From: Torpedo marmorata
Lineage: Eukaryota
Direction of reading: 5' to 3'
Length of the DNA: 64,000 nucleotides
Assembly: GCA_977017645.1 (NCBI GenBank)
Contig: OZ360223.1
Span: 80,662,001-80,726,000 of the forward strand
Position numbers and translations under genes: made by a program. Under the pieces are notes generated by a model. The model did not search any database, had not been told where the DNA came from, and saw only the letters and a program-made list of their open reading frames with translations. Every line of letters begins with the position of its first letter. The stretch's first letter is position 1. Shown in pieces: positions 5,966 to 64,000 of the stretch.

Positions 5966-6400
5966 ACGAGAAAATGACACCCAAGAAATAAAAATGGGAG
6001 ACAAGGAGATGGCGGAGGAACTAAATGAGTGGAAGACACTAGCAGTGCGCCAGATGTCGAAGCGTATCAAGGAAGGAAAGTGAGTGCAGTTACTATTTCA
6101 AGGGAGAAGGTGCGAAGAAAGCTGAATAGTCTTCGGGTGGATATGTCTCCCTGACCAGACGGATTGCACCCTCGGGTCCTGAAAGAGGTAGCGGTAGAGA
6201 TAGATTCTGGCATGGTCCTGGAGGACTGGAAAATCGCAAATGTCACCCCACTATTCAAGAAGGGAGGCAGCAGAAAGAAAATTATAGGCCAGTTAGCCTG
6301 ACGCCAATGGTTGGAAGATGTTGGAGTCGATTGTCAAGGATGAGGTTACGGAGTACTTGGAGGCATGTGACAGGATAGGCCAAAGCCAGCATGGTTTCCT

Positions 6401-14526: not shown

Positions 14527-14532
14527 AGAAAA

Positions 14533-20696: not shown

Positions 20697-23600
20697 TATT
20701 ACGGTGACTTCGATCCAACAATAGTCACCTGGAGGCTAAGTGAGATACTTGTCTTTGACGCGTTTTAATTAATTTACTAACAAAGTCCAATATGTTCAAA
20801 AACCTTTATTTACACACGTGACTTGCAGTAATCTTCAATGACTTTAATATAAACAGTTCTTGTAAACGATGTATGAAGTGTTCCTTTAAATGATTCTTTA
20901 AACAATTCCAAAACAATATGAAACACTGTAAAATGATGTTAAACGATATAAAAACGGTCAATAAAGATGTGGAGACCTCACTCACCCTACAAACATCTTA
21001 TTCCTTTCCTTTTCTCTCTCTCTATCCTTGATTTGCGCATGCCCATTAGCTCCTAAACCACTGCGCATCCTACCCCGCGCATACTACATTTCCCAGACTG
21101 CAACGCGCACAATGACGTCACTCCACACTGCGCATGCGCCCGTCGGCACTCCCGCGCATGCGCAGAGCAAAGAACGGGCCGACGACGGCCTACAGAACAA
21201 CGCGAGCGCTCCAAGGCCCGACGAGACTTCGGAGCGCCGCAACAACGGTAAGTTAATGAGCCTACGGCTCTTACACCGGCCCCTAATTATTATAATTAGA
21301 CGTAATGTCTTGAATAATAATTACACTATAAATTATAAATAACAATAACCATAACATTCAAAACAATACAAATCTTCTTTCTTCCTTCTTCTTAAATCTA
21401 GAGTTTACCATAACTCTGATTCAACAAAAGTCTGTAACCTGTGAAATATACAACAACAAATAAAGTCAGTTTATATTTATCAAAGTTCCTCTGTCTCCAA
21501 CAAAAGACAGACCTTGTTAATAGGTCTGCTTCGAAAAACCAGTCTTAGTTTTAATTCACACTTGACGCACAAGTCCTCTTTTGTCTTGAAAAGTCTCAAT
21601 AATTTTTCCAAGTAACCAGGAGTTTCTTGAAGTTGAATTATCCATAATAATCACAATGTCTCTTTAAAGTTCTTTTATCTTCATAATCTGAGTTAAAACG
21701 TCAACCAGTAAACCTCAAATCTTCCTCAGATAAAATAGATACAGTTTTTCTTTTGAATTTAACACAAGGCACTTCTTCAGCATGTCGTTTCACTTTATTC
21801 CTTTTTTCAGTATTCCACTTTTCATGTGAAGAATTTAAACTCTTAGAATTAGAATTTGAATATTTATCTGATCCTTTCGATTTTAAACAGGTCTGTTTAA
21901 CCACTCTGGTTTCTATTGCTCTTTCCTGCAATTCTAAATCCAATTTTGCAACTTTCAATTCAGTCTCAGTTCTTTCTGAGAAATTAATAATTTGATCTGA
22001 AGTCAAAATATCATGTGATACATTGATATTTCCATTGTCAATCCTGTTGCGACAAACTTGAAATTTTTTAATTTCTTCATCTTGTTTGTTACATTTCTGC
22101 AATGCAATATCACATTCTTTCTGCATTGGTAATTGTTGAACATTCAATTTACATTCTTGATTGGTTTTTAAAGTCAACTGTTTTGTGTTATTAACCAATA
22201 ACTTGTTCTCTTTCAAAACATTAATCTCTTCCTCCAACCTTTTACATTTTGATAATGCTGAATCTCTTTCCTCAATAACTGTATTCATTTCTTCAGCAGT
22301 TATTTTTTTCTTCCGCTTTCTGACTTTGCGAGTTTTACTTACAATTAAATCTTTCTGTTTACTGTTTTCTTGATTATCTAATATTTCCAATTCCCCTTTC
22401 AACATTTTGTTCTCTGAATTCAATTGCATTAAATTATCATTCACATTATTCTTTATTCCATCAGCACAATTTTCTGTGTTCTCCAGTTTTACATCACATT
22501 GTAATCTTTCTTCATTAGCTTTGTCTGTTATAATCTCTGAACTACAAAATCTACATTCAGATTTGTTTTCAGTCACTTGTTTTATTCCTGTATTTGATTC
22601 AATTACACATGAATAATCAATAGTATTATTTGCAATATCTTCTAATACTTCACTTTCATCCATTTCTGATAAAATTAATTCCTTCAATGTTGTTTTAAAT
22701 ACCCTTGATTTATTTTCACATTGATCTGTTTTCTTTTCTTCAAAAGTGATTTTCTTATTCAGTTTTTTGCTCTTCGCTTAACTCTTCAACTTTCTCAACC
22801 GAAATTCTATTAATATTTATCGCTACCTGTTCCTGAGCAATATCATTATTTCTTTCCATTGGTCCATTGATTGTCCAACCAAGCATGGTTTTAACAGCAT
22901 AAGGTCCATTCCTTTTACTCTCTATTACTTCTTTTGGTACCAAAATCTTTGGCACATCTGAACCAATCAGCATTTCTATCTCAGAATTAATTTCAGGTAA
23001 ATAAACCTTCCACAGATAAGCTAAATGATGGATATCCCTTTGATGAGGAATATTTCCTTCATTCACAGGCATAGTCTTCTGAGTATATACACTTGGAAGA
23101 TCACAAAATTTTTTGTCATCCAATCCAGCAACCTCTAAGCCTGAAACAATGTTAGTTTCAACAACCTTTTCTTGTCCCATGGTTTTTAACATAATTCTTG
23201 ATCTTTTTCCTTGAATATTAAGTTTATTCATTAGTCCTTCCGTGCAAAAAGATGCAGTGCTGCCTGGGTCTAGAAATGCATATGTTTTTACTATTGCATC
23301 CCCTTTCTTGGCCTTGACTTGTACAGGCACTATTGAAAGTTTGCAGTTATTCACCCCGGCCCCAGTAAGACCACTTGTCTGAACCGAGGTTATAACATTA
23401 TTTTCTGTTGTTTCCTTTGTTTCTGTTTGCTCCTTTTCCAATTCCTTGTTTCTGTTATGGATATGCAAAATTCTAGGATGTTTCAAATTGCATATGTTAC
23501 AATTAATTCGCTTCTCGCAGTTTTTACTGATGTGCCCTTTACACAGACAGCTAAAACATATTCCATTTTCCTTTAAGAAAGCGATCTTTTCCTTATGTTC

Positions 23601-26600
23601 CTTCTTTTCCAATCGTAAACACATTTCCAAAGTATGTCCACCTTTACAGAACAAACAACTCTTTTCATTAGGCAAACTTTTCTTTTCCTTATTTACTTTG
23701 TCATTTTCTTTACTTATAACTTGCACATTAGTAGCAAAAGTACTCCTTTTCACTTTCGGACTAAACTGTGTGTTAGACTTCTTTACATCTTTGCCCATTG
23801 AATTATCTCTGGTATTTCCATATAGTGGATCTGTTTCAACATACACCTGTCGTTCAAGAAAATTTACCAAGGTAATTTTTCGACCGTAATTTACTTGTAA
23901 ATCACAAGCCAAATTTCTCCATCTATCCCATACCTTGTAAGGTAATTTTTCTAAAATGATTCGCATATTACTATGCACATCAAGCTCACGAATACTATCG
24001 ATTTCTTCCATAGCATTACAACATCCTCTTAAAAACAGAGTAAACTCTTGCAGAGCCTTTACATCATTTTGTTTTATTGATGTCCATTTAAGAGCTTTAT
24101 CCATATAAGCTAAAGCAATTCAATGCTTGTTGCCAAAATATTGTTCCAATAAAGCCTTAGCTTTGTCTAATCCTCTTCCTGAAGACATTTGTTTACAACT
24201 TTTTACCAGTTCTTTTGGATGTCCCTTTGTGAACATTTCCAAATAATAAAGACATTCATCACGATCTTGGCATTTATCTTCAATATTGCGTTTGAAAGAT
24301 CTCATAAATGATTGATATTGAAGTGGATCACCATCAAAAGTTTGTATCTCTTTCTTGGGTAAAGAAGAGAGAGACTGTAACTGAAACAATGATGCAGCAA
24401 TTTCATTTTGTCTTTCCTTGGACGACAATACATTGCTCTGTTCACCGTCTCTTGTTGCATGCAATGTATCTGGAAACCTCACTGGTGTAGTTTCTTCCAT
24501 ATTTCTGATGTTTGACTCAAATAACAAAGAAGTTGCTTCGTTCGACCAAACCCAAGCCGCAGCTTTGCTTTCAGATGTTATCATTGGTACATGTGACTCG
24601 ATACCAATATGCTCTTGAAAGGTTTGTCCTTGTATATGTAAGTTTTGTATCCTTGGTTCTAAAATATCTATCCTTTTGATTGGTTTCTTTTCCTGTGATT
24701 CCTTTTTTAAATATGACCTTTTATTATCGGACAATTTAGATAATTTACTGCTAACACCAGATACCATTGAGCCTTTTATTGCTTTCTATTCTGCCTTGGC
24801 AATAGCAATGTTTGCTTCTAGCTCCTGCTGTTCTTTTCTCTGCCTAAGCTGCTCCTTCTCTTGTCTTAGCTGCTCCATTAGCTGCTTCTCATTTTGTCTT
24901 AGCTGCTCCTTTAGCTGTTTCTCATTTTGTCTTAGCTGCTCCTCCTCTTGTCTTAGCTGCTCCTTTAGCTGCTCCTCTTTGTCTTAGCTGCTCCTTTACC
25001 TGCTCCTCCTTTTGTTTTAGCTGCTCCTTTAGCTGCTCCTCCTTTTGTCTTAGCTGCTCCTTTACCTGCTCCCCCTTTTGTCTTAGCTGCTCCTCCTCTT
25101 CTTCCAAAATATACTTATCCTTAAGCGTTTTTTGTTGTGCAAGAAGAGCGGCCAATTTAACATCAACCTTTGTACGTGACGATGCAGAACTTGAAGTACG
25201 AGAAACTCTGGAGCTCGAACCAGAACTTCTTTTGCTTCTCCTGCTTTCAGCATTTGAGACACTGTCACTTGCTTGTATTTCGTCCTGCAGTTCATATGTT
25301 GTCTTCATACTTACCTCTTTATCCAATTCGAATTGTATATCCTTTGCATCTTCAACCACTTTAATTTCTTCATCATTTGTTGACACAATTTCAGCCATTT
25401 CCAAGTTATCTTCTTGTTCAACTAATGAAGCTGCCTCTTCATCCTTTGCCAGCTTCAATCTTTCGATAAGAGCCCTTTTATTTCCACTTATGTCCTTTTT
25501 CAGTCGCTTCAATTCTTCTTTAATATCCGAAACCTTCATGTCTTCAATACGTTGGTCCTCAACAGCAACATCAGCGGTTGCTGCGTCAGCTGCTGATATA
25601 TCAGTAGCTGCTGTATCAGTGGCTGCTGCGGCCATTTTACTCGTCTTGTTCCTCTTTCCTTCAAGCATACACAACACTAGCCAAATCAACAGTCCCCAAT
25701 GGACCAGCGGCAGCAATTCCAATCTGTGTTCTTACTTGCTAAAGATACACAGAAGGAGTCCACAGACTTATGCCTACCACTTCAAATGACTGTAATGTGC
25801 TGCAATCCACAAACGAGTTTCAACCACAACATCCGTCACTAATATCACTGATTTTCCAAAAATGGTTTCTCCAACGTATTTATAGGACACTTTACTATAA
25901 GATTTGAAGCTTTAAATCCCTCTCTGGCTGTTACTCATGGCAGATGGATGTGGATTACAAACTGCCCCCAACTCGAGGCATCTCCAAGATGGCCACCATT
26001 TTATATCAGTCCCAAGCACAGAGAGTTTTTTCTATCTTCTTTCTTTCAAACTTCTGTTCCAAACAGCCAGCTCTTTATTGACTATATTACGGTGACTTCG
26101 ATCCAACAATAGTCACCTGGAGGCTAAGTGAGATACTTGTCTTTGACGCGTTTTAATTAATTTACTAACAAAGTCCAATATGTTCAAAAACCTTTATTTA
26201 CACACGTGACTTGCAGTAATCTTCAATGACTTTAATATAAACAGTTCTTGAAATGATGTATGAAGTGTTCCTTTAAATGATTCTTTAAACAATTCCAAAA
26301 CAATATGAAACACTGTAAAATGATGTTAAACGATATAAAAACGGTCAATAAAGATGTGGAGAACTCACTCACCCTACAAACATCTTATTCCTTTCCTTTT
26401 CTCTCTCTCTATCCTTGATTTGCGCATGCCCATTAGCTCCTAAACCACTGCGCATCCTACCCCGCGCATACTACATTTCCCAGACTGCAACGCGCACAAT
26501 GACGTCACTCCACACTGTGCATGCGCCCGTCGGCACTCCCGCGCATGCGCAGAGCAAAGAACGGGCCGACGACGGCCTACAGAACAACGCGATTGCTCCA

Positions 26601-26722
26601 TGGCCCGACGTGGCCTCGGAGCGCTCCGAGGACGGCCTACAGAACAACGCGAGCGCTCCAAGGCCCGACGAGACATCGGAGCGCCGCAACAACGGTAAGT
26701 TAATGAGCCTACGGCTCTTACA
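20697..26722 (-). mobile_element. Non-autonomous BEL/Pao LTR element, copy 1 (3' LTR 20697-21275, 5' LTR 26083-26722), inserted in a CR1 3' fragment
   Basis: Paired LTRs, 5-bp TSD GTCCC, PPT-like AGGGGCCGG before the 3' LTR; CR1 sequence continues across 20540-20696 and 26723-26900. Confidence 0.92.
21701..25635 (-). pseudogene. BEL copy 1 Gag-protease-tail ORF, disrupted
   Basis: Same protein as copies 2 and 3, with stops (about 24788, 24120) and frameshifts (about 24960, 22760). Confidence 0.88.
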
Positions 26723-32150: not shown

Positions 32151-32181
32151 GAACTTTAATTCACTTCACCCCGCAGAACTC

Positions 32182-32213
<32 letters not shown>

Positions 32214-35828: not shown

Positions 35829-36704
35829 GAATAGAGAACCAGAAAGTGGTAGAGTGGTAGTGGAGGGTTATAATTAACGGTGACTTCGCTCCACCAATAG
35901 TCACCTGGAGGCTAAGTGTGGTCCTTGCTTTTGACGCGTTTTAATTAATTTACTAACAAAGTCCAATATGTTCAAAACCTTTATTTTCACACATGACTTG
36001 CAGTAATCTTCAATGACTTTAATATGAACAGTTCTTGTAAACGATGTATGATGAGTTCCTTTAAATTATTCCTTAAACAATTCCAAAACGATATGAAACA
36101 CTGTAGATGATGTTAAAGTTATAAAAACATTATAAAACGATATAAAACGGTCAATAAAGATGTGGAGACCAGACTCACCCTCCTACATCTCTATCCTTTC
36201 TTTGTTCTCTCTCTCTAATGGCTCTGCGCATCCTACCCCGCGCATACTACAACTCCCAGCCTCCCACGCGCACAATGACGTCACTCCATACTGCGCATGC
36301 GCCCGTCGGCACTCCCGCGCATGCGCATATCAAAGAACGGGCCAACGACGGGCCACAGAACAACGCAAGCGCTCCAAGGCCCGACGTGGCCTCGGAGCGC
36401 TCCGAGGACGGCCTGGCGAACAACGCGAGCGCTCCAAGGACCGACCAGACATCGGAGCGCCGCAACAACGGTAAGTTAAACGAGCCTACGGCTTTACACC
36501 GGCCCCTAATTATTATAATTAGACGCAATGTCTTGAATAATAATTACACTATAAATTATAAATAACAATAACCATAATATTCAAAACAATACAAATCTTC
36601 TTTCTTCCTTTTTCATAAATCTAGAGTTTACCATAACTCTGATTCAACAAAAGTCTGTAACCTGTGAAATATACAACAACAAATAAAGTCAGTTTATATT
36701 TATC

Positions 36705-36885
36705 AAAGTTCCTCTGTCTCCAACAAACGGCAGACCTTGTTAATAGGTCTGTTTAGAAAACCAGTCTTAGCTTTAATTCGCACTTGACGCACAAGTCCTC
36801 TTTGTCTTGAAAAGTCTCAATAATCTTTTTCAAGTAACCAGGAATTTCTTGAAGTTGAACCATCCATAACAATCACAATGTCTCT
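36705..36885 (-). pseudogene. Relic of BEL integrase C-terminus (DUF5641-like) after the ORF stop; also at about 21485-21665 and 60835-61015
   Basis: Copy 1 reads DIVIIMDNSTSRNSWLLGKIIETFQDKRGLVRQV...RPINKVCLLLETEE, the typical end of BEL pol. Confidence 0.75.
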
Positions 36886-36922
36886 TTAAAGTTCTTCCAT
36901 CTTCACAATCCGAGTCAAAACG

Positions 36923-39900
36923 TCAACCAGTAAACCTCAAATCCTCCTCAGACAAAATAGATACAGTTTTTCTTTTGAATTTAACACAAGGCACTTCTTC
37001 AGCACGTCGTTTCACTTTATTCCTTTCTTCAGTATTCCACTTCTCATGTGAAGAATTTAAACTCTTAGAATTAGAATATTTATCTGATCCTTTCGATTTT
37101 AAACAGGTCTGTTTAACCACTCTGGTTTCTATTGCTCTTTCCTGCAATTCTAAATCCAATTTTGCAACTTTCAATTCAGTCTCAGTTCTTTCTGAGAAAT
37201 TAATAATTTGATCTGAAGTTAAAATATCATGTGATACATTGATATTTCCATTGTCAATCCTGTTGCGACAAACTTGAAATTTTTTAATTTCTTCATCTTG
37301 TTTGTTACATATCTGCAATGCAATATCACATTCTTTCTGCATTGTTAATTGTTGAACATTCAATTTACATTCTTGATTGGTTTTTAAAGTCAACTGTTTT
37401 GTGTTATTAACCAATAACTTGTTCTCTTTCAAAACATTAATCTCTTCCTCCAACCTTTTACATTTTGATAATGCTGAATCTCTTTCCTCAATAACTGTAT
37501 TCATTTCTTCAGCAGTTATTCTTTTCTTCCGCTTTCTGACTTTGCGAGTTTTACTTACAATTAAATCTTTTTGTTTACTGTTTTCTTGATTATCTAATAT
37601 TTCCAATTCTCCTTTCAACATTTTATTCTCTGAATTCAATTGCATTAAATTATCATTCACATTATTCATTATTCCATCAGCACAATTTTCTGTGTTTTCC
37701 AGTTTTACATCACATTGCAATAATTCTTCATTAGCTTTGTCTGTTGTAATCTCTGAACTACAAAATCTACATTCAGATTTGTTTTCAGTCACTTGTTCTA
37801 TTCCTTTATTTGATTCAATTACACATGAATAATCAATAGTATTATTTGCAATATCTTCTAATACTTCACTTTCATCCATTTCTGACGAAATTGATTCCTT
37901 CAATGTTGTTTTAAATACCATTGATTTATTTTCACATTGATCTGTTTTCTTTTCTTCATAAGTAATTTTCTTATTCACGGTTTTTTGCTCTTCGCTTAAC
38001 TCTTCAACTTTCTCAACTGAAATTTTATTAATATTTATCGCTACCTGTTCCTGAGCAATATCATTATTTCTTTCCATTGGTCCATTGATTGCCCAACCAA
38101 GCATGGTTCTAATAGCGTAAGGTCCATTCCTTTTACTCTCTATTACTTCTTTTGGTACCAAAATCTTTGGCACATCTGAACCAATCAGCATTTCTATTTC
38201 AGAATTAATTTCAGGTAAATAAACCTTCCACAGATAAGCTAAATGATGAATATCACTTTGATGAGGAATATTTCCTTCGTTCACAGGCATAGTCTTCTGA
38301 GTATATACACTTGGAAGATCACAAAACCTTTTGTCATCCAATCCAGCAACCTCTAAGCCTGAAACAATGTTAGTTTCAACAACCTTTTCTTGTCCCATGG
38401 TTTTTAACATAATTCTTTATCTTTTTCCTTGAATATTAAGTTTATTCATTAGTCCTTCCGTGTAAAAAGATGCAGTGCTGCCTGGGTCTAGAAATGCATA
38501 TGTTTTTACTATTGCATCCCCTTTCTTGGCCTTGACTTGTACAGGTACTATTGAAAGTTTGCAGTTATTCACCCCGGCCCCAGTAAGACCACTTGTCTGA
38601 ACCGAGGTTATAACATTATTTTCTGTTGTTTCCTTTGTTTCTGTTTGCTCCTTTTCCAATTCCTTGTTTCTGTTATGGATATGCAAAATTCTAGGATGTT
38701 TCAAATTGCATATTTTACAATTAATTCGCTTCTCGCAGTTTTTACTGATGTGCCCTTTACACAGACAGCTAAAACATATTCCATTTTCCTTTAAGAAAGC
38801 GATCTTTTCCTTATGTTCCTTCTTTTCCAATCGTAAACACATTTCCAAAGCATGTCCACCTTTACAGAACAAACAACTCCTTTCATTAGGCAAACTTTCC
38901 TTTTCCTTATTTACTTTGTCATTTTCTTTACTTATAACTTGCACATTAGTAGCAAAAGTACTCCTTTTCACTTTCGGACTAGACTGTGAATTAGACTTTC
39001 TTACATCTTTGCCCATTGAATTATCTCTGGTATTTCCATATAGTGGATCCGTTTCAACATACACCTGTCGTTCAAGAAAATTTACCAAATCCTTTAAAGT
39101 AATTTTTCGACCGTAATTTACTTGTAAATCACAAGCCAAATTTCTCCATCTATCCCATACCTTGTAAGGTAATTTTTCTAAGATAATTCGCATATTACTA
39201 TGCACTTCAAGTTCACGAATATTATCGATTTCTTCCATAGCATTACAACATCCTCTTAAAAACAGAGTAAACTCTTGCAGAGCCTTTACATCATTTTGTT
39301 TTATTGATGTCCATTTAAGAGCTTTATCCATATAAGCTAAAGCAATTCGATGCTTGTTGCCAAAATATTGTTCCAATAAATCCTTAGCTTTGTCTAATCC
39401 TCTTCCTGAAGACATTTGTTTACAACTTTTAACCAGTTCTTTTGGATGTCCCTTTGTAAACATTTCCAAATAATAAAGACATTCATCACGATCTTGGCAT
39501 TTATCTTCAATATTGCGTTTGAAAGATCTCATAAATGATTGATATTGAAATGGATCACCATCAAAAGTTTGTATCTCTTTCTTGGGTAAAGAAGAGAGAG
39601 ACTGTAACTGAAACAATGATGCAGCAATTTCATTTTGTCTTTCCTTGGATGACAATACATTGCTCTGTTCACTGTCTCGTGTTGTAAGCAATGTATCTGG
39701 AAACCTTACTGGTGTAGTTTTTTCCATATTTCTGATGCTTGGCTTATATAACAAAGAATTTACTTCGTTCGATCGGACCCAAGCCGCAGCTTTGCTTTCA
39801 GATGTTACTAATGATACATGTGACTCGATACCAATATGCTCGTGAAAAGTTTGTCCTTGTATATGTAAGTTTTGTATCCTTGGTTCTAAAATATCTATCC

Positions 39901-40861
39901 TTTTGGTTGGTTTCTTTTCCTGTGACTCCTTTTTTAAATATGACCTTTTATTATCAGACAATTTAGATGATTTACTGCTAACACCAGATACCATTGAGCC
40001 TTCTATTGCTTTCTTTTCTGCCTTGGCAATAGCAATGTTTGCTTCCAGCTCCTGCAGTTCTTTTCTCTGTCTTAGCTGCTCCTTCTCTTGTCTTAGCTTC
40101 TCCTTTAGCTGCTCCTCCTTTTGTCTTAGCTGCTCCTTATTTTGTCTTAGCTGCTCCTCCTCTTGTCTTAGCCGCTCCTTTAGCTGCTTCTCATTTTGTC
40201 TTAGCTGCTCCTCCTCTTGTCTTAGCCGCTCCTTTAGCTGATTCTCATTTTGTCTTAGCTGCTCCTCCTCTTGTCTTAGCCGCTCCTTTAGCTGATTCTC
40301 ATTTTGTCTTAGCTGCTCCTCCTCTTGTTCTAAAATAAATTTATCCTTAAGCGTTTTTTGTTGTGCAAGAAGAGTGGCCAATTTAACATCAATCTTTGTA
40401 CGTGACGACGCAGAACTTGAAGTACGAGAAACTCTGGAGCTCGAACCAGAACTTCTTTTGCTTCTCCTGCTTTCAGCATTTGAGACACTGTCACTTGCTT
40501 GTATTTCGTCCTGCAGTTCATATGTTGTCTTCATACTTACCTCTTTATCCAATTCGAATTGTATATCCTTTGCATCTTCAACCAATTCAATTTCTTCCTC
40601 ATTTGGTGACACAATTTCAGCCATTTCCAAGTTATCTTCTTGTTCAAATAATGAAGCTGCCTCTTCATCCTTTGCCTGCTTCAATCTTTCGATAAGAGCC
40701 CTTTTATTTCCACTTATGTCCTTTTTCAGTCGCTTCAATTCTTCTTTAATATCCGCAACCTTCATGTCTTCAATACGTTGGTCCTCAACAGCAACATCAG
40801 CGGTTGCTGCGTCAGCTGCTGATAAATCAGTAGCTGCTGTATCAGTGGCTGCTGCGGCCAT
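36923..40861 (-). CDS. BEL copy 2 polyprotein (~1312 aa; single in-frame TAA at 38417): SAP, coiled coil, Gag, three Cys-His knuckles, aspartic protease, MIPOL1-like tail
   Basis: MKVADIKEELKRLKKDISGNKRALIERL (SAP-like); LPKKEIQTFDGDP (BEL Gag); CLFCKGGH, CFSCLCKGHISKNC, CKICNLKHPRILH; YAFLDPGSTAS; GPYAIRTMLGWAINGP; no RT motifs. Confidence 0.9.
40065..40330 (-). repeat. Coding tandem repeats (54-bp unit QEEEQLRQNENQLKERLR with 21/33-bp subunits) in BEL gag
   Basis: Repeated TTGTCTTAGCTGCTCC; a different unit arrangement occurs in copy 1 (about 24840-25100). Confidence 0.9.
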
Positions 40862-41940
40862 TTTACTCGTCTTGTTCCTCTTTCCTTCAAGCATACACAA
40901 CACTAGTCAAACAACAGTCCCCAATGGACCAGCGGCAGCAATTCCAATCTGTGTTCTTACTTGCTAAAGATACACAGAAGGAGTCCACAGACTTATGCCT
41001 ACCACTTCAAATGACTGTAATGTGTTGCAATCCACAAACGAGTTTCAACCACAACATCCGGCTCTAATATCACTGATTTTCCAAAAATGGTTTCTCCAAC
41101 GTATTTATAGGACACTTTACTATAAGATTTGAAGCTTTAAATCCCTCTCTGGCTGTTATTCATGGCAGATGGAAGTGGATTACAAACTGCCCCCAACTCG
41201 AGGCATCTCCAAAATGGCCACCAATTTATATCAGTCCAAAGCACCGAGAGTTTTTTCTATCTTCTTTCCTTCAAACTTCTGTTCCAAACAGCCAGCCCTT
41301 TATTGACTATAATTAACGGTGACTTCGCTCCACCAATAGTCACCTGGAGGCTAAGTGTGGTCCTTGCTTTTGACGCGTTTTAATTAATTTACTAACAAAG
41401 TCCAATATGTTCAAAACCTTTATTTTCACACATGACTTGCAGTAATCTTCAATGACTTTAATATAAACAGTTCTTGTAAACGATGTATGATGAGTTCCTT
41501 TAAATTATTCCTTAAACAATTCCAAAACGATATGAAACACTGTAGATGATGTTAAAGTTATAAAAACATTATAAAACGATATAAAACGGTCAATAAAGAT
41601 GTGGAGACCAGACTCACCCTCCTACATCTCTATCCTTTCTTTGTTCTCTCTCTCTAATGGCTCTGCGCATCCTACCCCGCGCATACTACAACTCCCAGCC
41701 TCCCACGCGCACAATGACGTCACTCCATACTGCGCATGCGCCCGTCGGCACTCCCGCGCATGCGCATATCAAAGAACGGGCCGACGGGCCACAGAACAAC
41801 GCAAGCGCTCCAAGGCCCGACGTGGCCTCGGAGCGCTCCGAGGACGGCCTGGCGAACAACGCGAGCGCTCCAAGGCCCGACCAGACATCGGAGCGCCGCA
41901 ACAACGGTAAGTTAAACGAGCCTACGGCTCTTACAAGGGT

Positions 41941-45139: not shown

Positions 45140-47065
45140 CCAAAAGTTGGCAGATGGAATTTAATCCCTACAAATGCAAGATGATATGTTTGTTTTGGCA
45201 CAATATTTACAGTAAATGATAGGGCACTGAAGAACAGAGGGGCTTTGCGATTCACTCCCTAGTTACCCTGAAATTGGGAACACAGGTAGATGGGGTGATG
45301 AAGTAGGCATATGGCATGCTTGCTTTCATGGATCTGGGACAGAATATAAAATCTGGGACATCATGTGGCAACTTAACACATTGATTGGAGAACACTGAGT
45401 ATTAGGTGCAGTTCTGGTTGTCACACTTAGAAGGATGTGCTTGTGCTGGGGAGAGTGATGGAGAGATTCACCAGGATATTGCCTGGACCAGAGGACTTCA
45501 GTTACATGGTGAGATTGGATAAGATGGATCCATTTTCCCTGGAATGAAGGACACTGAAGGGTGACGTGAAAGAACTAAATATCATAACAGGTGTAGAAAG
45601 TCAAAAATCTTTATTTTCCTGTGGTTAAGGTATCAAAAACAAGAGAGCATTGTTTAAGTTTTTGAGGTGAAAAACAAAGATATCTGGAATTTACTGACAA
45701 GGGAGGTGGTAGAGTCAGATATAATTATTAGGTTTGAGAGACATTTAGACTGGCAGTTAAATTGACAAGGCACATCAGGATACAGACTGCACACAGGCAA
45801 ACAGGATGAGTATGGATTGTGTTACGAACTAACAAACCTTGCTAGTACTAACAAAGAAACAGCAATGGAATATGCACCAGACAATGGTAAATTCAAAAAT
45901 AGTTTTTATTTAAACTATTAATAACATAACATATCTTACTTATCTCTAAACTTAACTCTAACTTAAACCCCACTATGCGCAAATGTAAATGCGTGTGTGT
46001 TAAAGTCCAAACCAGTTCAGTTCAAACTTAATTCTGAAAAAGTCAATTTTCAAAGTCCAGTTTCCAACTTCTTTTGTTTTTCTTCAGGATCCCTTTAAAC
46101 TGTGATTCAGAAATTATCATAAAGCAAGAATGGAATATTCAATTTCTTTCAAACTCACACATCTTCTGATGAGTTGTCTTTCAGAGATAGTCTTCATACG
46201 AATGTTCACAAGGTTCCCCCTATCTTGTTAGGGTTACGGAACTGTAATCTTCAAAATGATTTCTTAATCAGGAGTAACATACGCTGATGTCCTCTTTTCT
46301 TAGAAACAATTTGAAAAGTGGTCTTACTTATTTTAAAAGCCACATCTGGTGTACCTCCTATGATAAGGATAATACACAGAACAGCACCTCCTCACTCAGA
46401 GATTCACTGTTCAGACTCAATTCTGCCTTTCCAGAATATTAAAGTTCTTCAAACTTTATATCTTCGTCTTACCGAAGCGTCAGAGCCTTCTCCAGTCTGG
46501 TTCCATTTGCTTCTAAATGTCTCTCTGCTTTCATTATATATTTCTGACATCATGTGACATTACATCACTACAACTTTAGTTTCATTTTCAGAAAGCATTA
46601 CCTCATGCCTTTCTTCAAAATCACTTACATCTGACCTCATCTCTGTTCCAATAGGTTTAAGTGATTACGACTCCGAATAGTCTGGCATATGTCACTCAAA
46701 TGGCACTTGAGTTTGCAACAGCTGCTATCATAAGGCTTTTAAAAACCACTTCAGTTTTTAAATCACTTAAATGTTCTTAAGCAACCACTTCAGATTTTAT
46801 GACTTTTGACTTTCACAGACGCATCGACTCCGAAAGACTCCCAGCTGCAATTTCTTTCTCTCAGTAATAGTTTTTTTCTGCAAATGTGCTGTGACCTGTG
46901 TGTGACCCTGTACCAGCCCACAACTAACCTTACTAAGATATCTAATTCTATAACTTAACTTTAAATATTAATATTAACATTAACACATTCGTCACAATTG
47001 GTAGCGTAGGTCAGCATGGATGTGGTGGGCCAAACGGCTGGTTTTCAAGCTGAACAACTCTATGA
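45140..47065 (+). mobile_element. Decayed CR1 3' part, interrupted by the solo LTR at 45820-46996
   Basis: KWQMEFNPYKCK-like remnant and VQFW motif; CR1 tail GGGCCAAACGGC at about 47025. Confidence 0.65.
45820..46996 (-). mobile_element. Solo LTR, copy A (1177 bp)
   Basis: TGTTACG...CGTCACA termini, 4-bp TSD ATTG; highly similar second copy at 55758-57064. Confidence 0.85.
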
Positions 47066-52451: not shown

Positions 52452-53404
52452 CTGTAGCAAAGAGAAATATGCAAACAGAAATAGATTTTAATCGATAGCC
52501 ATTTGTTGAAATCACTTGCAATGATCACCAGCATCACATATTACGATTGACTAAACACAACTCAAACAGAAAAACACTTCTTTCTATTTTATTACGAAGG
52601 AGGTAAACAAGTCAAGAAAAGGCTTAATTGTTCAATTTTTTTTAATGGAAAACACCCTTGCGGGATATCTGAAATAAAAACAGAAAATACTAGGAACATT
52701 TAACAGGTCAGAAAGCATCTGCAGAAGGAGAAGTTGTTGTTTCAGGTCTGGGACCTGTCATCAAAACTGGGACTTATTTCCCTTTGCAATTCCCAACAAT
52801 AACATTCACAAACAAAACAAGACAAAGCATTGTCCATAAGCTTTGATCCAACTTCTCTCGCTTCACACCCAATACAAAATTAAAAAAATATTGAAAGGAA
52901 CCATTAAATTTGGCAGTACAACATTGCAAGCCTGCAGTTTGAAGATATTCTGACACTCAGGTGTTTTAAAACAAAAAAAAATAAAACCACCTGCACTGTC
53001 ACAGGAAAGTTAGGTGACAGTTGGTTAGCTGATGACATTACTTGTGGGTTGTCAGAGGCTCAGTGTGCAGAACCTCATGTGATCAACAGTACTTGTGCTG
53101 GAAGTGACCACCTTCCTTCATTCTGCATTCCTGATGGGTTTTTCTCCCCAAATCGGAAATACTAATTCACCATCAGTTTTTCTTTCCCTTTGATTAAAAA
53201 CTTCCTTCAGTTCCACAAGCACAAAGTCTATGAATGATTTTTATCATGGGACCACAACTTCATACCACGAGATGCTCTTTAATATTATAATGGTCATACA
53301 TCTTCATAGCTTGAACTCAGTTGCAAATACACAGGAAAAGAATGTTATGGTGACTGGTTTTGAGTAGTGCATTCTTGAAGTTACTGAAGCCTTGTAATCA
53401 CCTG

Positions 53405-55624
53405 AGTGCAGGTTATTATAATATGCCATTTAGTCAGGCAATTAGACAAGGTGAAATACTAAGCATGCATTTTTTATTAATGAGTTAAATAAGCAAGGAT
53501 AAATTAGTTGACGTGATTCTCCGTGTTACTTGAAAAACATGGTTTTATCATTGTTATTGAGTATAAATAACTTGACTGTTTGAAGGTGGATTTTAAAAAA
53601 GCAACAGGGAGCAAGCACTCTTATGTCTGAAGATGTTTATATCTAAAAAATGGGAGAAACCAGCAAGACTGGTGGAATCTTTAGCAAACAGGATTGTTAA
53701 GTTTCATGTTTTCATTTCTGTATTTTAACTTGTGCTTTAAACTTTAAAATAGCAATGACCCAATATTTCTGTTAAAATATATGAGTGCTTTTATCATAAA
53801 ACTATCTATTCTTTCTTTCCACCAGAGTTTGGATGGGGAAACATTTTGAGAACGAGAAAAATACATCACGTTAATTTGTGTCATTTGTTGCTTTCTGTGT
53901 ACAAGAAATTTGTGCCAATAGGTGTACATAGCGACTTGCATGTGACAACTATTTTCCTAATCATGAACAATTTTGGAAGACCAAGGCCACACAAACTTCA
54001 ATTCTCAGTCTCCAACGCAATCCCTTTCTCTGCCAATTGTCTAAAATGGAACCAAACATTCTGCAACTTCAATGTTATTTAACTCAAAAAGGATAGAGTG
54101 TTGACCTGAAACTTGACAATCCCTCACTGCCCTGGCCCCTCCGTCATCCCCACAGATGATGCTCAACCCATTGAGTTTCCCCAACACTTTGGTTTTTGGC
54201 TCAGATTCCAGAATCTACAGTTTCTCATGTTTCCTTTAAAGAACTTGATCTTAACCTGGACCTGCCATTGAATTATTTGCCATCACTCATGCTGCGCCTC
54301 AGCTGCCATCATCCTCACTCACACCCTCATTACCTCAAGATTTGACTGCTAGCCTGTCTCCTTCCTGATCAGGCACTGCAACCTTGAGTTCATCTGAAAG
54401 CTGTTCACTATTGTGCTTAAAGACCAACGCTGGCTTAAATTTAAAACTATATTTTTCAAATCCTTCCCTGGACTTATTCTTACCTCTGCATCCATTCGCT
54501 TCCAGTCTTTATCTTTGTAGAAATCTGTATTCCGCCAATTTGGCCACACGAGGATCCCTATAATTAATCTTTCCACTTCAAACAGACGGAATTGCCTCAT
54601 CCATAAACTCAGGAATTCATCAGAAAATGTCTATAACATTGCTCTTTGAAAATAGTTCTTTATCATCTATCTTAATATTTTCTCATGATTCTTAAGGTCA
54701 AAATTTGATTGATAGTATTCTTATAATCGAACTTGAAATGTTTTGCAACATTGATCTGTATGAATATGTACACAGGGCCCACATACAAATGCTCATTGCA
54801 CTCTGTTAAGTAATACTAATAAAGTAATTGGATAACAAGATGTAATAGTTGCTGTATACATTTATCTCCACTTGCTAACTCAACCAAAATAGCAGCATTG
54901 AAAACAAATGCAATCTGAGATAGCATGCATAATTAATAGATTATATGTTTTCAAAATAATTTATTTGTAGCTTTCTTGGATGTTCCAATAAATTCAACCA
55001 TATTCTGTGACTGCCGCATATTAAAAAAATGTGGTTTCTGTTCTCTTTGCCAAGGACAGAATGAACTGTATTCAGCATTTACATCTCAGTGGGGTGTTAA
55101 AGTTGACAGTTTCAATTTTAATCCTCAATTAAAAAGTTGGAGAGATCATTCAGGCTTGAGGCATACACTAATAATCAGTGGAATCCCAAAGTGGTTGCAA
55201 AATAAGTCAGTCTTTTAAAAACAGCGACTAGAAGTACAGGATGTTGAAATTAACATTGCCTTTTAAAGAACTTGTGTGCTCCAGTCAATCAATCAATACT
55301 CCATACAAGCCATTGCTTGCCAGGTGTGTCCTTGCTGCGATTTTGATTAACAGTTCAACAGACAAGTGTTTGAAATTGATCTCGAAGACAAGTGCATGCA
55401 GATTACTGCAATGTAGCACAATTCCAAAAGTACATTTCTTAAAACACCTTCAGTCAAGTTATTTATACTCAATAACAATGATAAAACCATGTTTTTCAAG
55501 TAACACGGAGAATCACGTCAACTAATTTATCCTTGCTTATTTAACTCATTAATAAAAAATGCATGCTTAGTATTTCACCTTGTCTAATTGCCTGACTAAA
55601 TGGCATATTATAATAACCTGCACT
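53405..55624. repeat. Perfect 174-bp inverted repeat (53405-53578 / 55451-55624) around a 1.87-kb spacer
   Basis: Base-by-base reverse-complement comparison found no mismatch. Confidence 0.92.
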
Positions 55625-55757
55625 TAGAAAGGAAGTTGATTGATCCTGACACGTACTTTGGTAGAAGTTTGTTATATAATTTTGTTTTATGGTCAGGAAA
55701 ATTTTGAACTTTGAAGAGCACCCTCTTCAATGAAAGCTATTTTTCCAGTGATCCAAG

Positions 55758-57064
55758 TATTACGAACATAGACTACAAACAACAGTACCAAATATTCTTG
55801 TGCACATCATCAATAAAACAAACCAAAGGGACACAAAGCAGTTTGTTAGAAATGTAAATAATGTGGTCTTGTATTCACCAAGTATATAACCTATTGACAG
55901 AAACCTTGCTAGTACTAACAAAGAAACAGCAATGGAATATGCACCAGACAATGGTAAATTCAAAAATAGTTTTTATTTAAACTATTAATAACATAACATA
56001 TCTTACTTATCTCTAAACTTAACTCTAACTTAAACTCCACTATGCGCAAATGTAAATGTGTGTGTTAAAGTCCAAACTAGTTCAGCTTAAACTTAAATCT
56101 GAAAAAGTCAATTTTTAAAGTCCAGTTTCCAACTTCTTTTGTTTTTCTTCGGGATTCCTTTAAATTGTGATTCAGAAATTATTATAAAGCAAGAATGGAA
56201 TATTCAATTTCTTTCAAACTCACACATCTTTTGATGAGTTGTCTTTCAGAGATAGTCTTCATACGAGTGTTCACAAGGTTCCCCCTATCTTGTTAGGGTT
56301 ACGGAACTGTAATCTTCAAAATGATTTCTTAATCAGGAGTAACATACGCTGATGTCCTCTTTTCTTAGAAAAGAATTTGAAAAGTGGTCTTACTTATTTT
56401 AAAAGCCACATATGGTGTATCTCCTATGATAAGGATAATATACAGAACAGCACCTCCTCACTCAGAGATTCACTGTTCAGACTCAATTCTGCCTTTCCAG
56501 AATATTAAAGTTCTTCAGACTTCATATCTTCGTTTTTCCGAAGTGTCAGAGTTTTTTCCAGTCTGGTTCAATCTGCTTCTAAAATCCTCTCTGCTTTCAT
56601 TATATATTTCTGACATCATGTGACATTACATCACCACAATTATAGTTTCATTTTCAGAAAGCATTACCTCATACCTTTCTTCAGAAATCACTTACATCTG
56701 ACCTTATCTCTGTTCCAAGAGGTTTAAGTGATTACGACTCCGAATAGTCTGGCATATGTCACTCAAATGGCACTCGAGTTTGTAACAGCTGCTATCATAA
56801 GGCTTTTAAAAACCACTTCAGTTTTTTAAATCACTTAAATGTTTTTAAGCAACCACTTCAGGTTTTATGGCTTTTGACTTTCATAGACTTGTCGACTCCG
56901 AAAACTCCCAGCTGCAATTTCTTTCTCTCAGTAATAGTTTTTTTTCTGCAAATGTGCCGTGACCTGTGTGTGACCCTGTACCAGCCCACAAATAACCTTA
57001 CTAAGATATCTAATTCTATAACTTAACTTTAAATATTAATATTAACATTAACACATCCGTCACA
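55758..57064 (-). mobile_element. Solo LTR, copy B (1307 bp)
   Basis: Colinear with 45820-46996 with about 130 extra bp near the left end; termini TATTACG...CGTCACA; TSD not clean (CAAG/CATT). Confidence 0.8.
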
Positions 57065-57180
57065 CATTGCATGAGCATAATTACAATTGTCTACCTTTAC
57101 TGTTGTCTGCACATTGATTATTATGCTATAGCATCAGTGCAGTCAGAATTAAGCAAAATGCAGATCAAAGCACAACTTAC

Positions 57181-59961: not shown

Positions 59962-62900
59962 TATAAGTAACGGTGACTTCGCTCCACCAATAGTCACCTG
60001 GAGGCTAAGTGTGGTCCTTGCTTTTGACGCGTTTTAATTAATTTACTAACAAAGTCCAATATGTTCAAAAACCTTTATTTTCACACATGACTTGCAGTAA
60101 TCTTCAATGACTTTAATATAAACAGTTCTTGTAAACGATGTATGATGAGTTCCTTTAAATAATTCTTTAAACAATTCCAAAACGATATGAAAACACTGTA
60201 GAACGATGTAAAAGTTATAAAACGATATAAAACGGTCAATAAAGATGTGGAGACCAGACTCACCCTCCATACATCTTTTCCTTTCCTTCTCTATCTCTCT
60301 CTAATGGCTCTGCGCATCCTACCCCGCGCATACTACAACTCCCAGCCTCCCACGCGCACAATGACGTCACTCCATACTGCGCATGCGCCCGTCGGCACTC
60401 CCGCGCATGCGCATATCAAAGAACGGGCCGATGACGGCCCACAGAACAACGCAAGCGCTCCAAGGCCCGACGTGGCGCTCCGAGGACGGCCCAGCGAACA
60501 ACGCGAGCGCTCAATGGCCCGACGTGGCCTAGGAGCGCTCCGAGGACGGCCCACCGAACTACGCGAGCGCTCCAAGGCCCGACGAGACATCGGAGCGCCG
60601 CAACAACGGTAAGTTAACGAGCCTACGGCTCTTACACCGGCCCCTAATTATTATAATTAGACGTAATGTCTTGAATAATAATTACACTATAAATAATAAT
60701 AACCATAACATTCAAAACAATACAAATCTTCTTTCTTCCTTCTTCATAAATCTAGAGTTTACCATAACTCTGATTCAACAAAAGTCTGTAACCTGTGAAA
60801 TATACAATAACAAATAAAGTCAGTTTATATTTATCAAAGTTCCTCTGTCTCCAACAAAAGACAGACCTGGTTAATAGGTCTGTTTAGAAAACCAGTCTTA
60901 GCTTTAATTCGCACTTGACGCACAAGTCCTCTTTGTCTTGAAAAGTCTCAATAATCTTTTCCAAGTAACCAGGAATTTCTTGAAGTTGAACCATCCATAA
61001 CAATCACAATGTCTCTTTAAAGTTCTTCCATCTTCACAATCCGAGTCAAAACGTTAACCAGTAAACCTCAAATCATCCTCAGATAAAATAGATACAGTTT
61101 TTCTTTTGAATTTAACACAAGGCACTTCTTCAGCACGTCGTTTCACTTTATTCCTTTCTTCAGTATTCCACTTCTCATGTGAAGAATTTAAACTCTTAGA
61201 ATTAGAATTTGAATATTTATCTGATTCTTTCGATTTTAAACAGGTCTGTTTAACCACTCTGGTTTCTATGGCTCTTTCCTGCAATTCTAAATCCAATTTT
61301 GCAACTTTCAATTCAGTCTCAGCTCCTTCTGAGAAATTAATAATTTGATCTGAAGTCAAAATATCATATAGTACATTGATATTTCTATTGTCAATCCTGT
61401 CGCGACAAACTTGAAATTTTTTTATTTCTTCATCTTGTTTGTTACATTTCTGCAATGCAATATCACATTCTTTCTGCATTGTTAATTGTTGAACATTCAA
61501 TTTACATTCTTGATTGGTTTTTAAAGTCAACTGTTTTGTGTTATTAACCAATAACTTGTTCTCTTTTAAAACATTAATCTCTTCCTCCAACCTTTTACAT
61601 TTTGATAATGCTGAATCTCTTTCTTCGATAACTGTATTCATTTCTTCAGCAGTTATTCTTTTCTTCCGCTTTCTGACTTTGCGAGTTTTACTTACAATTA
61701 AATCTTTCTGTTTACTGTTTTCTTGATTATCTAATATTTCCAATTCCCCTTTCAACATTTTGTTCTCTGGATTCAATTGCATTGAATTATCATTCACATT
61801 ATTCTTTATTCCATCAGCACAATTTTCTGTGTTTTCCAGTTTTACATCACATTGTAATATTTCTTCATTAGCTTTGTCTGTTGTAATCTCTGAACTACAA
61901 AATCTACATTCAGATTTGTTTTCAGTCACTTGTTTTATTCCTGTATCTGATTCAATTACACATGAATGATCAATAGTATTATTTGCAACATCTTTTAATA
62001 CTTCACTTTCATCCTCTAACACTTCACTTTCATCCATTTCTGACGAAATTAATTCCTTCAATGTTGTTTTAAATACCATTGATTTATTTTCACATTGATC
62101 TGTTTTCTTTTCTTCATAAGTGATTTTCTTATTCACGGTTTTTTGCTCTTCTCTTAACTCTTCAACTTTCTCAATTGAAATTTTATTAACATTTATCGAT
62201 ACCTGTGCCTGAGCAATATCATTATTTCTTTCCATTGGTCCATTGATTGCCCAACCAAGTATGGTTCTAATAGCGTAAGGTCCATTCCTTTTACTTTCTA
62301 TTACTTCTTTTGGTACCAAAACCTTTGGCACATCTGAACCAATCAGCATTTCTATCTCAGAATTAATTTCAGGTAAATAAACCTTCCACAGATAAGCTAA
62401 ATGATGGATATCACTTTGATGAGGAATATTTCCTTCGTTCACAGGCATAGTCTTCTGAGTATATACACTTGGAAGATCACAAAATTTTTTGTCATCCAAT
62501 CCAGCAACCTCTAAGCCTGAAACAATGTTAGTTTCAACAAACTTTTCTTGTCCCATGGTTTTTAACATAATTCTTGATTTTCTTCCTTGAATATTAAGTT
62601 TATTCATTAGTCCTTCCGTGCAAAAAGATGCAGTGCTACTTGGGTCTAGAAATGCATATGTTTTTACTATTGCATCCCCTTTCTTGGCCTTAACTTGTAC
62701 AGGCACTATTGAAAGTTTGCAGTTATTCACCCCGGCCCCAGTAAGACCACTTGTCTGAACCGAGGTTATAACATTATTTTCTGTTGTTTCCTTTGTTTCT
62801 GTTTGCTCCTTTTCCAATTCCTTGTTTCTGTTATGGACATGCAAAATTTTAGGATGTTTAAAATTGCATATGTCACAATTAATTTGCTTCTCGCAGTTTT

Positions 62901-64000
62901 TACTGATGTGCCCTTTACACAGACAGCTAAAACATATTCCATTTTCCTTTAAGAAAGCGATCCTTTCTTTATGTTCCTTCCTTTCCAATTGTAAACACAT
63001 TTCCAAAGCATGTCCACCTTTACAGAACAAACAACTCTTTTCATTAGGCAAACTTTCCTTTTCCTTATTTATTTTGTCCTTTTCTTTACTTATAACTTGC
63101 ACATTAGTAGCAAAAGTACTCCTTTTCACTTTCGGACTAGACTGTGAATTAGACTTTCTTACATCTTTGCCCATTGAATTATCTCTGGTATTTCCATATA
63201 GTGGATCTGTTTCAACATACACTTGTCGTTCAAGAAAATTTACCAAATCCTTTAAAGTAATTCTTCGACCATAATTTACTTGTAAATCACAAGCCAAATT
63301 TCTCCATCTATCCCATACCTTGTAAGGTAATTTTTCTAAAATGATTCGCATATTACTATGCACATCAAGATCACGAATACCATTGATTTCTTCCATAGCA
63401 TTACAACATCCTCTTAAAAACAAAGTATATTCTTGCAAAGCCTTTACATCATTTTGTTTTATTGATGTCCATTTAAGAGCTTTATCCATATAAGCTAAAG
63501 CAATTCGATGCTTGTTGCCAAAATATTGTTCCAATAAATCCTTAGCTTTGTCTAATCCTCTTCCTGAAGACATTTGTTTACAACTTTTAACCAGTTCTTT
63601 TGGATGTCCCTTTGTAAACATTTCCAAATAATAAAGACATTCATCACGATCTTGGCATTTATCTTCAATATTGCGTTTGAAAGATCTCATAAATGATTGA
63701 TATTGAAGTGGATCACCATCAAAAGTTTGTATCTCTTTCTTGGGTAAAGAAGAGAGAGACTTTACCTGAAACAATGATGCAGCAATTTCATTTTGTCTTT
63801 CCTTGGATGACAATACATTGCTCTGTTCACTGTCTCGTGTTGTATACAATGTATCTGGAAACCTTACTGGTGTAGTTTCTTCCATATTTATGATGCTTGG
63901 CTTATATAACAAAGAAGCTACTTCGTTCGACCGAACCCAATCCGCAGCCTTGCTTTCAGATGTTATCATTGGTACATGTGACTCGATACCAATATGCTCT
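59962..64000 (-). mobile_element. Non-autonomous BEL/Pao LTR element, copy 3 (3' LTR 59962-60636; continues beyond the window)
   Basis: LTR and internal region colinear with copies 1 and 2. Confidence 0.93.
61054..64000 (-). CDS. BEL copy 3 Gag-protease-MIPOL1-like polyprotein (partial; uninterrupted within the window)
   Basis: At least 971 codons open from Gag through the knuckles, protease (YAFLDPSSTAS) and tail to the shared stop after LRFTG. Confidence 0.92.
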   Translation of the reverse strand, partial: EHIGIESHVPMITSESKAADWVRSNEVASLLYKPSIINMEETTPVRFPDTLYTTRDSEQSNVLSSKERQNEIAASLFQVKSLSSLPKKEIQTFDGDPLQYQSFMRSFKRNIEDKCQDRDECLYYLEMFTKGHPKELVKSCKQMSSGRGLDKAKDLLEQYFGNKHRIALAYMDKALKWTSIKQNDVKALQEYTLFLRGCCNAMEEINGIRDLDVHSNMRIILEKLPYKVWDRWRNLACDLQVNYGRRITLKDLVNFLERQVYVETDPLYGNTRDNSMGKDVRKSNSQSSPKVKRSTFATNVQVISKEKDKINKEKESLPNEKSCLFCKGGHALEMCLQLERKEHKERIAFLKENGICFSCLCKGHISKNCEKQINCDICNFKHPKILHVHNRNKELEKEQTETKETTENNVITSVQTSGLTGAGVNNCKLSIVPVQVKAKKGDAIVKTYAFLDPSSTASFCTEGLMNKLNIQGRKSRIMLKTMGQEKFVETNIVSGLEVAGLDDKKFCDLPSVYTQKTMPVNEGNIPHQSDIHHLAYLWKVYLPEINSEIEMLIGSDVPKVLVPKEVIESKRNGPYAIRTILGWAINGPMERNNDIAQAQVSINVNKISIEKVEELREEQKTVNKKITYEEKKTDQCENKSMVFKTTLKELISSEMDESEVLEDESEVLKDVANNTIDHSCVIESDTGIKQVTENKSECRFCSSEITTDKANEEILQCDVKLENTENCADGIKNNVNDNSMQLNPENKMLKGELEILDNQENSKQKDLIVSKTRKVRKRKKRITAEEMNTVIEERDSALSKCKRLEEEINVLKENKLLVNNTKQLTLKTNQECKLNVQQLTMQKECDIALQKCNKQDEEIKKFQVCRDRIDNRNINVLYDILTSDQIINFSEGAETELKVAKLDLELQERAIETRVVKQTCLKSKESDKYSNSNSKSLNSSHEKWNTEERNKVKRRAEEVPCVKFKRKTVSILSEDDLRFTG

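Follow-up and report, generated by a model that had tools for sequence, protein, structure and literature searches.

The window analysed here is the whole 64-kb stretch of DNA, and its minus strand carries three copies of one element, 16.1 kb in total. Each of the three has paired long terminal repeats (LTRs), 579-675 bp in length, and a 5-bp target-site duplication (TSD). Their features are as follows, in window coordinates.

20697..26722, minus strand: copy 1, full length; LTRs 20697-21275 and 26085-26722 with 4 mismatches in 578; 5-bp TSD
22047/22046, minus strand: back-splice-type junction of copy 1
near 22770: frameshift between protease and tail of copy 1; another near 24980; stops also present
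35869..41935, minus strand: copy 2, full length; LTRs 35869-36498 and 41308-41935 with 2 mismatches in 627; 5-bp TSD
37263/37262, minus strand: back-splice-type junction of copy 2
38417-38419, minus strand: stop inside the protease of copy 2
59962 to beyond 64000, minus strand: copy 3; 5′ LTR outside the window; 5-bp TSD
59962..60636, minus strand: 3′ LTR of copy 3, 675 bp long and bounded by TG...TA as read on this strand; 1 mismatch in 675 against the 5′ LTR
60637..60650, minus strand: polypurine tract (PPT) of copy 3, the same in an autonomous relative
60861..61013, minus strand: integrase C-terminus remnant of copy 3, out of frame and broken, 3′ of the stop; 59% to residues 1944-1994 of P0127
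61043..61255, minus strand: Elongin A (ELOA)-derived piece of copy 3, shortened in the young family; ORF stop at 61054-61056 inside it
61255..61399, minus strand: MIPOL1 upstream exons A and B of copy 3, 3′ of the back-splice-type junction; 81-nt in-frame deletion across both
61399..61400, minus strand: back-splice-type junction of copy 3, where downstream exon Z ends and upstream exon A begins
61400..61705, minus strand: MIPOL1 downstream exons X (3′ part), Y and Z of copy 3, spliced; contains the segment first annotated
61698..62142, minus strand: BRCA1-derived piece of copy 3, approximately residues 200-350 of skate BRCA1
62143..64000, minus strand: BEL/Pao Gag (DUF1759, zinc knuckles) and aspartic protease of copy 3

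The LTR pairs of copies 1, 2 and 3 differ at just 4, 2 and 1 sites, respectively, so the three insertions are recent, and their cargo is 96-99% identical. Of the three, copy 3 alone has an uninterrupted frame, which comprises 1312 codons when the adjoining stretch L055 is included. The initial annotation of this DNA had reported a MIPOL1-like peptide, which was recovered at 61399-61701 on the minus strand with near-identical versions in copies 1 and 2. It had also read an unbroken frame from protease to tail in all three copies; this holds for copy 3 but not for copy 1, which has frameshifts and stops, or for copy 2, which has a stop in the protease. The LTRs of the window copies, and those of an autonomous element found elsewhere in the genome (L061), end in TG...TA rather than TG...CA and include an internal 60-bp tandem repeat in variable number.

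The Gag-protease region (DUF1759) gave 112 matches to long polyproteins, nearly all with PF05380 and the best with an E value of 1e-208; PF18701 also occurs among these relatives. Homology to BEL polyproteins ends just past the protease and returns after the stop as a broken 51-residue remnant of the integrase end. No reverse transcriptase (RT), RNase H or integrase core is present in the element, so its earlier description as RT-less was borne out, with the out-of-frame integrase C-terminus as the only remnant. The place of RT-RNaseH-integrase is taken by a cassette of approximately 1.1 kb comprising BRCA1, then MIPOL1, then Elongin A sequence, all three pieces being in sense orientation and in the frame of Gag-protease. 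Intron-free partial host sequence therefore lies between two parts of one LTR element, which is the configuration used to recognise LTR-mediated retrocopies of the Tan et al. 2016 type (PMC5131818). The element is a non-autonomous BEL/Pao LTR derivative; without RT, RNase H and integrase it does not qualify as autonomous. A SAP domain (PF02037, E value of 2.5e-7) was also observed at the Gag N-terminus of copy 2 (40673-40774, minus strand), a domain listed for one of the 112 autonomous BEL relatives.

The 368-aa tail that follows the protease matched MIPOL1 proteins with an E value of 1.5e-29 (192 matches); all named proteins among the 120 of these that were listed were either MIPOL1 or hypothetical proteins sharing its two Pfam entries. 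In a control that preserved heptad phase, the real score of 334 compared with a maximum of 92 in 500 shuffles, and the match is therefore not a coiled-coil artefact. A native BEL region was likewise rejected, MIPOL1-like sequence being found in 0 of the 112 autonomous BEL polyproteins (best E value of 0.2). The proposed MIPOL1 likeness and its foreign origin were thus both upheld. The tail was not recognised as MIPOL1 by Pfam, which gave 0 families for P0002 and, for P0003, three weak matches below threshold. A Gag-MIPOL1 fusion protein of 539-1717 aa was absent from the protein collection (5 matches, all MIPOL1-type), which is a weak negative as repeats often go unannotated.

BLASTP of the tail returned two MIPOL1 pieces in reversed order, and a genome search with ray MIPOL1 revealed many older copies in which residues ~340-470 are directly followed by residues ~210-300. 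The MIPOL1 part is consequently longer than first described and permuted, and the remainder of the tail is BRCA1 and Elongin A. The host gene lies on contig C40, with the following exons.

C40:64591881-64591746, minus strand: exon A
C40:64591106-64591001, minus strand: exon B
C40:64508001-64507872, minus strand: exon C
C40, end near 64492512, minus strand: exon X
C40:64463599-64463492, minus strand: exon Y
C40:64385806-64385712, minus strand: exon Z
C40, outside the captured arc: two single-copy exons, the large one upstream (64.64 Mb) and the next one downstream (64.32 Mb)

From its start within X to its end 18 nt into C, the captured arc comprises 587 nt with introns absent. The X-Y, Y-Z, A-B and B-C joins are those of normal splicing and coincide with the host exon boundaries to the base. 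Where they align, older copies are 87-99% identical to host exons Y, Z, A and B, while copy 3 is 72% identical to exon A, 90% to exon B and 80-85% to the downstream exons. The order Y-Z-A-B was kept in all 30 young loci and the three window copies, at 68-90% identity. The host MIPOL1 exons share 181 of 187 aligned residues with Narcine bancroftii, and 167, 160 and 147 of 188 with sawfish, stingray and shark, respectively, which points to an electric ray or close kin as the host. Eleven positions distinguish the host from two other rays; the captured piece agrees with the host at 9 of these 11, and the capture is therefore placed within the electric-ray line.

The 5′ part of the cassette had two protein matches among 1.84 billion (best E value of 1.4e-25), both BRCA1 by name and by the presence of RING and BRCT domains; an ESM Atlas search with this piece gave no match. 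In the host, the large BRCA1 exon was located on C61 (1195-codon frame). Older copies are 89-92% identical to it over 270-400 nt with introns absent, and positions 61698-61994 of copy 3 are 78% identical. The match begins at the acceptor of this large exon while the protein match extends further upstream, so the BRCA1 piece probably also came from spliced RNA. No RING or BRCT part of BRCA1 was captured. The switch from BRCA1 to MIPOL1 is mid-exon on both sides with a 2-nt overlap, and at this join copy 3 has a 120-nt in-frame deletion relative to older copies. Among the sequencing runs listed, none is recorded as RNA. Contigs of four out of four runs cover parts of the cargo and one record spans the BRCA1-MIPOL1 join, and no conclusion on expression or species range is drawn from them.

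For the 3′ part of the cassette, scoring the genome with PF06881 gave 136 matches among the 150 scored, many of them beside MIPOL1 matches, and this part of an older copy matched human Elongin-A in the PDB with an E value of 2.4e-33. Three host ELOA exons on C41 are joined exactly in older copies at 89-97% identity. In copy 3, one of these C41 exons is represented by 55 nt (61043-61097; 82% identity, E value of 2.7e-9), and positions 61189-61255 are 76% identical to the corresponding part of an older copy. The Elongin BC-box/SIII part is present in older copies and gone from the young family. In one older copy, L071, a single 594-codon frame spans the three host pieces and stops where the native BEL polyprotein does, while the last cassette join is not in frame in L062 and L065. 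A search for the ELOA entry exon was negative, both among the best 40 of 2245 candidates, which were element copies, and in L072; the BRCA1 upstream exon(s) and MIPOL1 exon D were not located either, and two of the four switch points were mapped on the host side. Two side observations concern these sequences: L071 has no BEL protease upstream within the stretch covered, and two split PF06881 matches at C25:175318134-175337048 (minus strand) suggest a second, intron-containing Elongin A paralogue.

We searched the genome for Pao RNase H and obtained 6,618 candidates; among the 150 listed (PF05380), 11 had frames of more than 2000 codons. One autonomous BEL element, L061, with a 2046-codon frame, has LTRs, primer binding site (PBS) region, PPT and gag-protease in common with the window copies at 91-94%, and the cassette occupies the place of 3.2 kb of RT-RNaseH-integrase in L061. 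The sequence 3′ of the 5′ LTR, which is the PBS region, is common to both, and its first bases are not TGG. These shared ends make it likely that an autonomous sister family of the L061 type is the helper that mobilises the element in trans. As a separate observation, eight helper-type RT matches at C45:16237520-16596790, spaced approximately 42-100 kb apart on one strand, suggest a large tandem segmental array.

Compared with L061 in 100-nt steps, copy 3 is 94-100% identical down to approximately 62320 and 73-81% identical below. The only full older carrier examined, L062, has different LTRs, and its gag-protease is 65-74% identical to those of the window copies or L061. For gag, dS is approximately 0.03 to the helper and 0.5-0.85 to the older carrier, while the cargo dS to the host is 0.35. 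On the simplest reading of these values, the cassette appears to have changed vehicle by recombining onto a second BEL backbone, with putative crossovers late in the protease and in ELOA; the comparison draws on a single full older copy (L062) and a single autonomous one (L061). With queries of equal length, the first look returned 32,474 cargo candidates versus 6,074 helper RT candidates (about five to one), which are first-look counts and not copy numbers. Frames of at least 1200 codons were present in 102 of the best 150 cargo matches, as ranked by identity to copy 3. The family seems to have spread to many thousands of copies, and the original claim of a host fragment amplified in frame with Gag-protease agrees with these results.

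We then considered selection on the tail. Over 277 codons, copy 3 differs from the host exons by 47 synonymous and 143 non-synonymous changes. A spectrum-keeping null predicts 45.8 synonymous changes, and 897 of 2000 simulations reached the observed number; changes confined to the young family, taken against each of four older copies, showed no synonymous excess either (P 0.36-0.64). Stops, on the other hand, number 0 in the cargo versus 10.7 expected, and 0 of 2000 simulations were without one. Copy 3, on which this test was run, has an open frame and served as the identity reference for picking the 30 young loci, so both are biased towards intact copies; the bias is tempered in that most cargo differences are shared, as follows from the near-identity of the cargo in the three window copies. 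The four large indels relative to both older copies compared (78, 6, 120 and 81 nt) are all multiples of three, a count that leaves out smaller indels of ambiguous alignment in the ELOA part. The tail is open end to end in 29 of the 30 young loci and the protease motif is intact in 29 of 30. The same approach does register constraint elsewhere: against the older backbone, dN/dS is 0.37 for the gag core and 0.19 for the protease (0 of 1000), with a range of 0.19-0.42 over gag-protease, while the zinc-knuckle stretch was not significant (227 of 1000). Neutral amino acids together with absent stops indicate that the open frame was kept and the host protein sequence was not: the cargo is neutral at the amino-acid level and its open frame is maintained.

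These data bear on whether the tail is a functional protein, released by the protease or carried on the particle, that aids assembly or disturbs the MIPOL1, BRCA1 or Elongin pathways of the host, and to which the family would owe its success. The frame kept open against expectation, its integrity and that of the protease motif in the young loci, the retention of the coiled-coil part while other parts were deleted, and the excess of cargo over helper RT candidates would all fit such a function. However, no comparison revealed a synonymous excess, the Elongin BC-box/SIII part was lost from the young family and the RING and BRCT parts of BRCA1 were never captured, and we judge a functional tail improbable. 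In particular, a role for the amino-acid sequence of MIPOL1 is unsupported given the lack of any excess of synonymous change in the cargo.

The non-colinear join within the MIPOL1 piece was examined in 19 older loci (L032-L050), which were taken from the best 20 matches rather than at random, L031 being left out as it is the host exon. In all 19, Z is present over its complete 95 nt and is followed without a gap by the first base of A. In the host, a GT donor follows Z and an AG acceptor precedes A, 206 kb upstream of Z. The two boundaries share phase 2, which means that the reading frame continues across the junction. Exons X, Y, Z, A, B and the 18 nt of C account for all parent sequence found in the captured piece; by protein alignment, the full circle would comprise 260 codons (780 nt). 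Dong et al. 2016 (PMC4897178) use a non-colinear junction of a downstream donor with an upstream acceptor as their criterion for an origin from circular RNA (circRNA). The exact donor/acceptor junction in 19 of 19 older loci and the lack of parent sequence from outside the circle correspond to this signature, and the source of the MIPOL1 piece was very probably a circRNA, predicted here from genomic sequence. The initial proposal of capture from spliced mRNA therefore stands as regards splicing, the exon joins matching the host base for base, but not as regards a colinear mRNA, the Z-A junction being of the circRNA type. Tandem duplication of the host exons was rejected, as each exon-end pattern that had a match gave one site on C40; one further site was found on C77, and the other patterns gave none or one site each off the host locus. 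For each of the three genes, the host exons that were located lie at a single locus (C40, C41 and C61). The acceptor of exon A (C40:64591881, L054) is a tandem NAGNAG, of which the captured junction uses the upstream AG.

A permuted MIPOL1 piece could in principle also derive from linear RNA, through trans-splicing or exon repetition or through a jump of RT within one mRNA at short microhomology. The two exon boundaries have AG plus one base in common, which makes a template jump within a linear mRNA formally possible, and RT evidently jumped freely at other switch points; other routes to non-colinear junctions are noted by Dong et al. (PMC4897178). Against this, both sides of the Z-A junction coincide exactly with splice sites, in contrast with the mid-exon switch between BRCA1 and MIPOL1, all 587 nt of captured MIPOL1 lie inside exons A-Z with none outside, and the exons outside the captured arc are single-copy. 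We therefore regard a linear source as quite improbable. A further possibility, that BEL took up in one event pieces already assembled into processed pseudogenes made by LINEs or into a chimeric host gene, is very unlikely. LINE elements are plentiful in the window and circRNA-derived pseudogenes exist (PMC4897178), but exon C and the exon after it had one strong match each, with no separate retrocopy containing either, a poly(A) tract lies at no mapped junction, and 19 of 19 older loci also hold BEL or cassette sequence.

We consider it probable that these loci belong to a helper-dependent BEL/Pao LTR family with a three-gene host cassette, which arose by template switching with a circRNA among its sources, changed backbone and carries an inert tail. 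During reverse transcription in a BEL particle, RT would have switched from the protease end of the element RNA to BRCA1 mRNA and then to MIPOL1 circRNA, entering exon X, crossing the back-splice junction and leaving 18 nt into exon C. It would next have moved to Elongin A mRNA and finally have returned to the element RNA close to the end of integrase, and the switches may have taken one round or more; template switching among co-packaged RNAs has been modelled by Tan et al. 2016 (PMC5131818). The product would retain LTRs, PBS, PPT and Gag-protease and be mobilised in trans by the autonomous sister family, and the cassette would later have recombined onto the second BEL backbone, where most of the expansion would have occurred.

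Under this model the tail would be an inert appendage rather than a mimic of MIPOL1, BRCA1 or Elongin. A possible reason for the kept frame is that it holds the stop close to the 3′ LTR (approximately 0.4 kb away rather than 1.5 kb). Decay of messages with long 3′ UTRs is an established pathway, and a near stop could spare the element RNA from it while its own Gag packages that RNA in cis. Within the model, we lean slightly towards this combination of RNA protection and Gag packaging as the reason for the kept frame; a literature search on the decay explanation returned no paper. It is also conceivable, though rather unlikely, that the cassette, having outlived its first vehicle to become one of the most abundant coding repeats of the 6.2-Gb genome, acts on the host through its tail protein or through small RNAs matching the three host genes, two of which are tied to DNA repair and transcription, and that this drives the expansion.

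Defective transducing retroviruses hold spliced host sequence in place of pol and fused to gag, depend on a helper, and have a cargo selected for protein function. The present family resembles them in its gag-host fusion and likely helper dependence; it differs in that its amino acids drift neutrally, it has no env and it is not a retrovirus. Like maize Bs1, as described in PMC13317346 and PMC5131818, it is an LTR element whose chimeric ORF contains exonic pieces from three host genes, and it underwent non-autonomous re-amplification. Bs1, however, has 1-5 copies; the present BEL/Pao family is from a vertebrate, its candidate sites number in the tens of thousands, and it has a putatively back-spliced piece, a likely helper and an apparent backbone swap. 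The LTR retrocopies and four-gene ‘Super’ retrocopy of Tan et al. 2016 (PMC5131818) likewise combine partial mRNAs of several genes in sense orientation through template switching, with secondary retroposition; their switches occur at microsimilarity, and in the present family the BRCA1-MIPOL1 switch has the 2-nt overlap. However, those loci are single or few-copy, with no mass amplification described and no use of the word ‘circular’ in the main text. Mouse circRFWD2 pseudogenes (Dong et al. 2016, PMC4897178) also have a back-splice junction fixed in DNA, in multiple copies with LTR-enriched flanks; they differ in that the account concerns 33 high-confidence copies, leaves the mechanism open and reports no Gag fusion, whereas here the junction lies in a complete LTR element with TSDs and in the polyprotein frame. 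Each ingredient thus has a precedent, and it is the combination and scale that are striking within LTR-mediated gene capture. No description of this family, of gene capture by BEL/Pao elements or of a circMIPOL1 was found in the mainly open-access literature searched.

The scale of gene capture is far above the copy numbers given for Bs1 (PMC13317346, PMC5131818) or circRFWD2 (PMC4897178), and so many copies form a natural test of why a dispensable frame stays open. A back-spliced junction in a complete, recently active LTR element bears on the question left open by Dong et al. (PMC4897178) of how circRNAs enter genomes; if the circRNA source is true, circRNAs can be packaged and copied in LTR particles alongside mRNAs. 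There is also a warning for annotation. A 2026 preprint (10.64898/2026.06.26.734816) places MIPOL1 first among retrocopy parents in cartilaginous fishes and reads this as functional enrichment; its available text links retrocopies to non-LTR elements and does not contain the words circular, back-splice or chimeric. Cargo of the element could explain this top rank of MIPOL1. SUDS3, SDF2L1, SLU7 and ZNF276, the other top parents in the same preprint, may be cargo of similar elements.

Other repeats were also observed in the window. Two Gypsy-type LTR elements (12001-15606, minus strand, and 27984-32454, plus strand) are 73% alike, the first with an 843-codon pol frame, and LINE reverse transcriptase frames of 408 and 961 codons lie at 4840-6066 (minus strand) and 8279-11164 (plus strand), respectively. 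An inverted pair of 177-199 nt, approximately 1.9 kb apart (53402-53600 and 55435-55627), and a 1.17-kb direct repeat at 95% (45834-47000 and 55901-57069) are probably further repeats.
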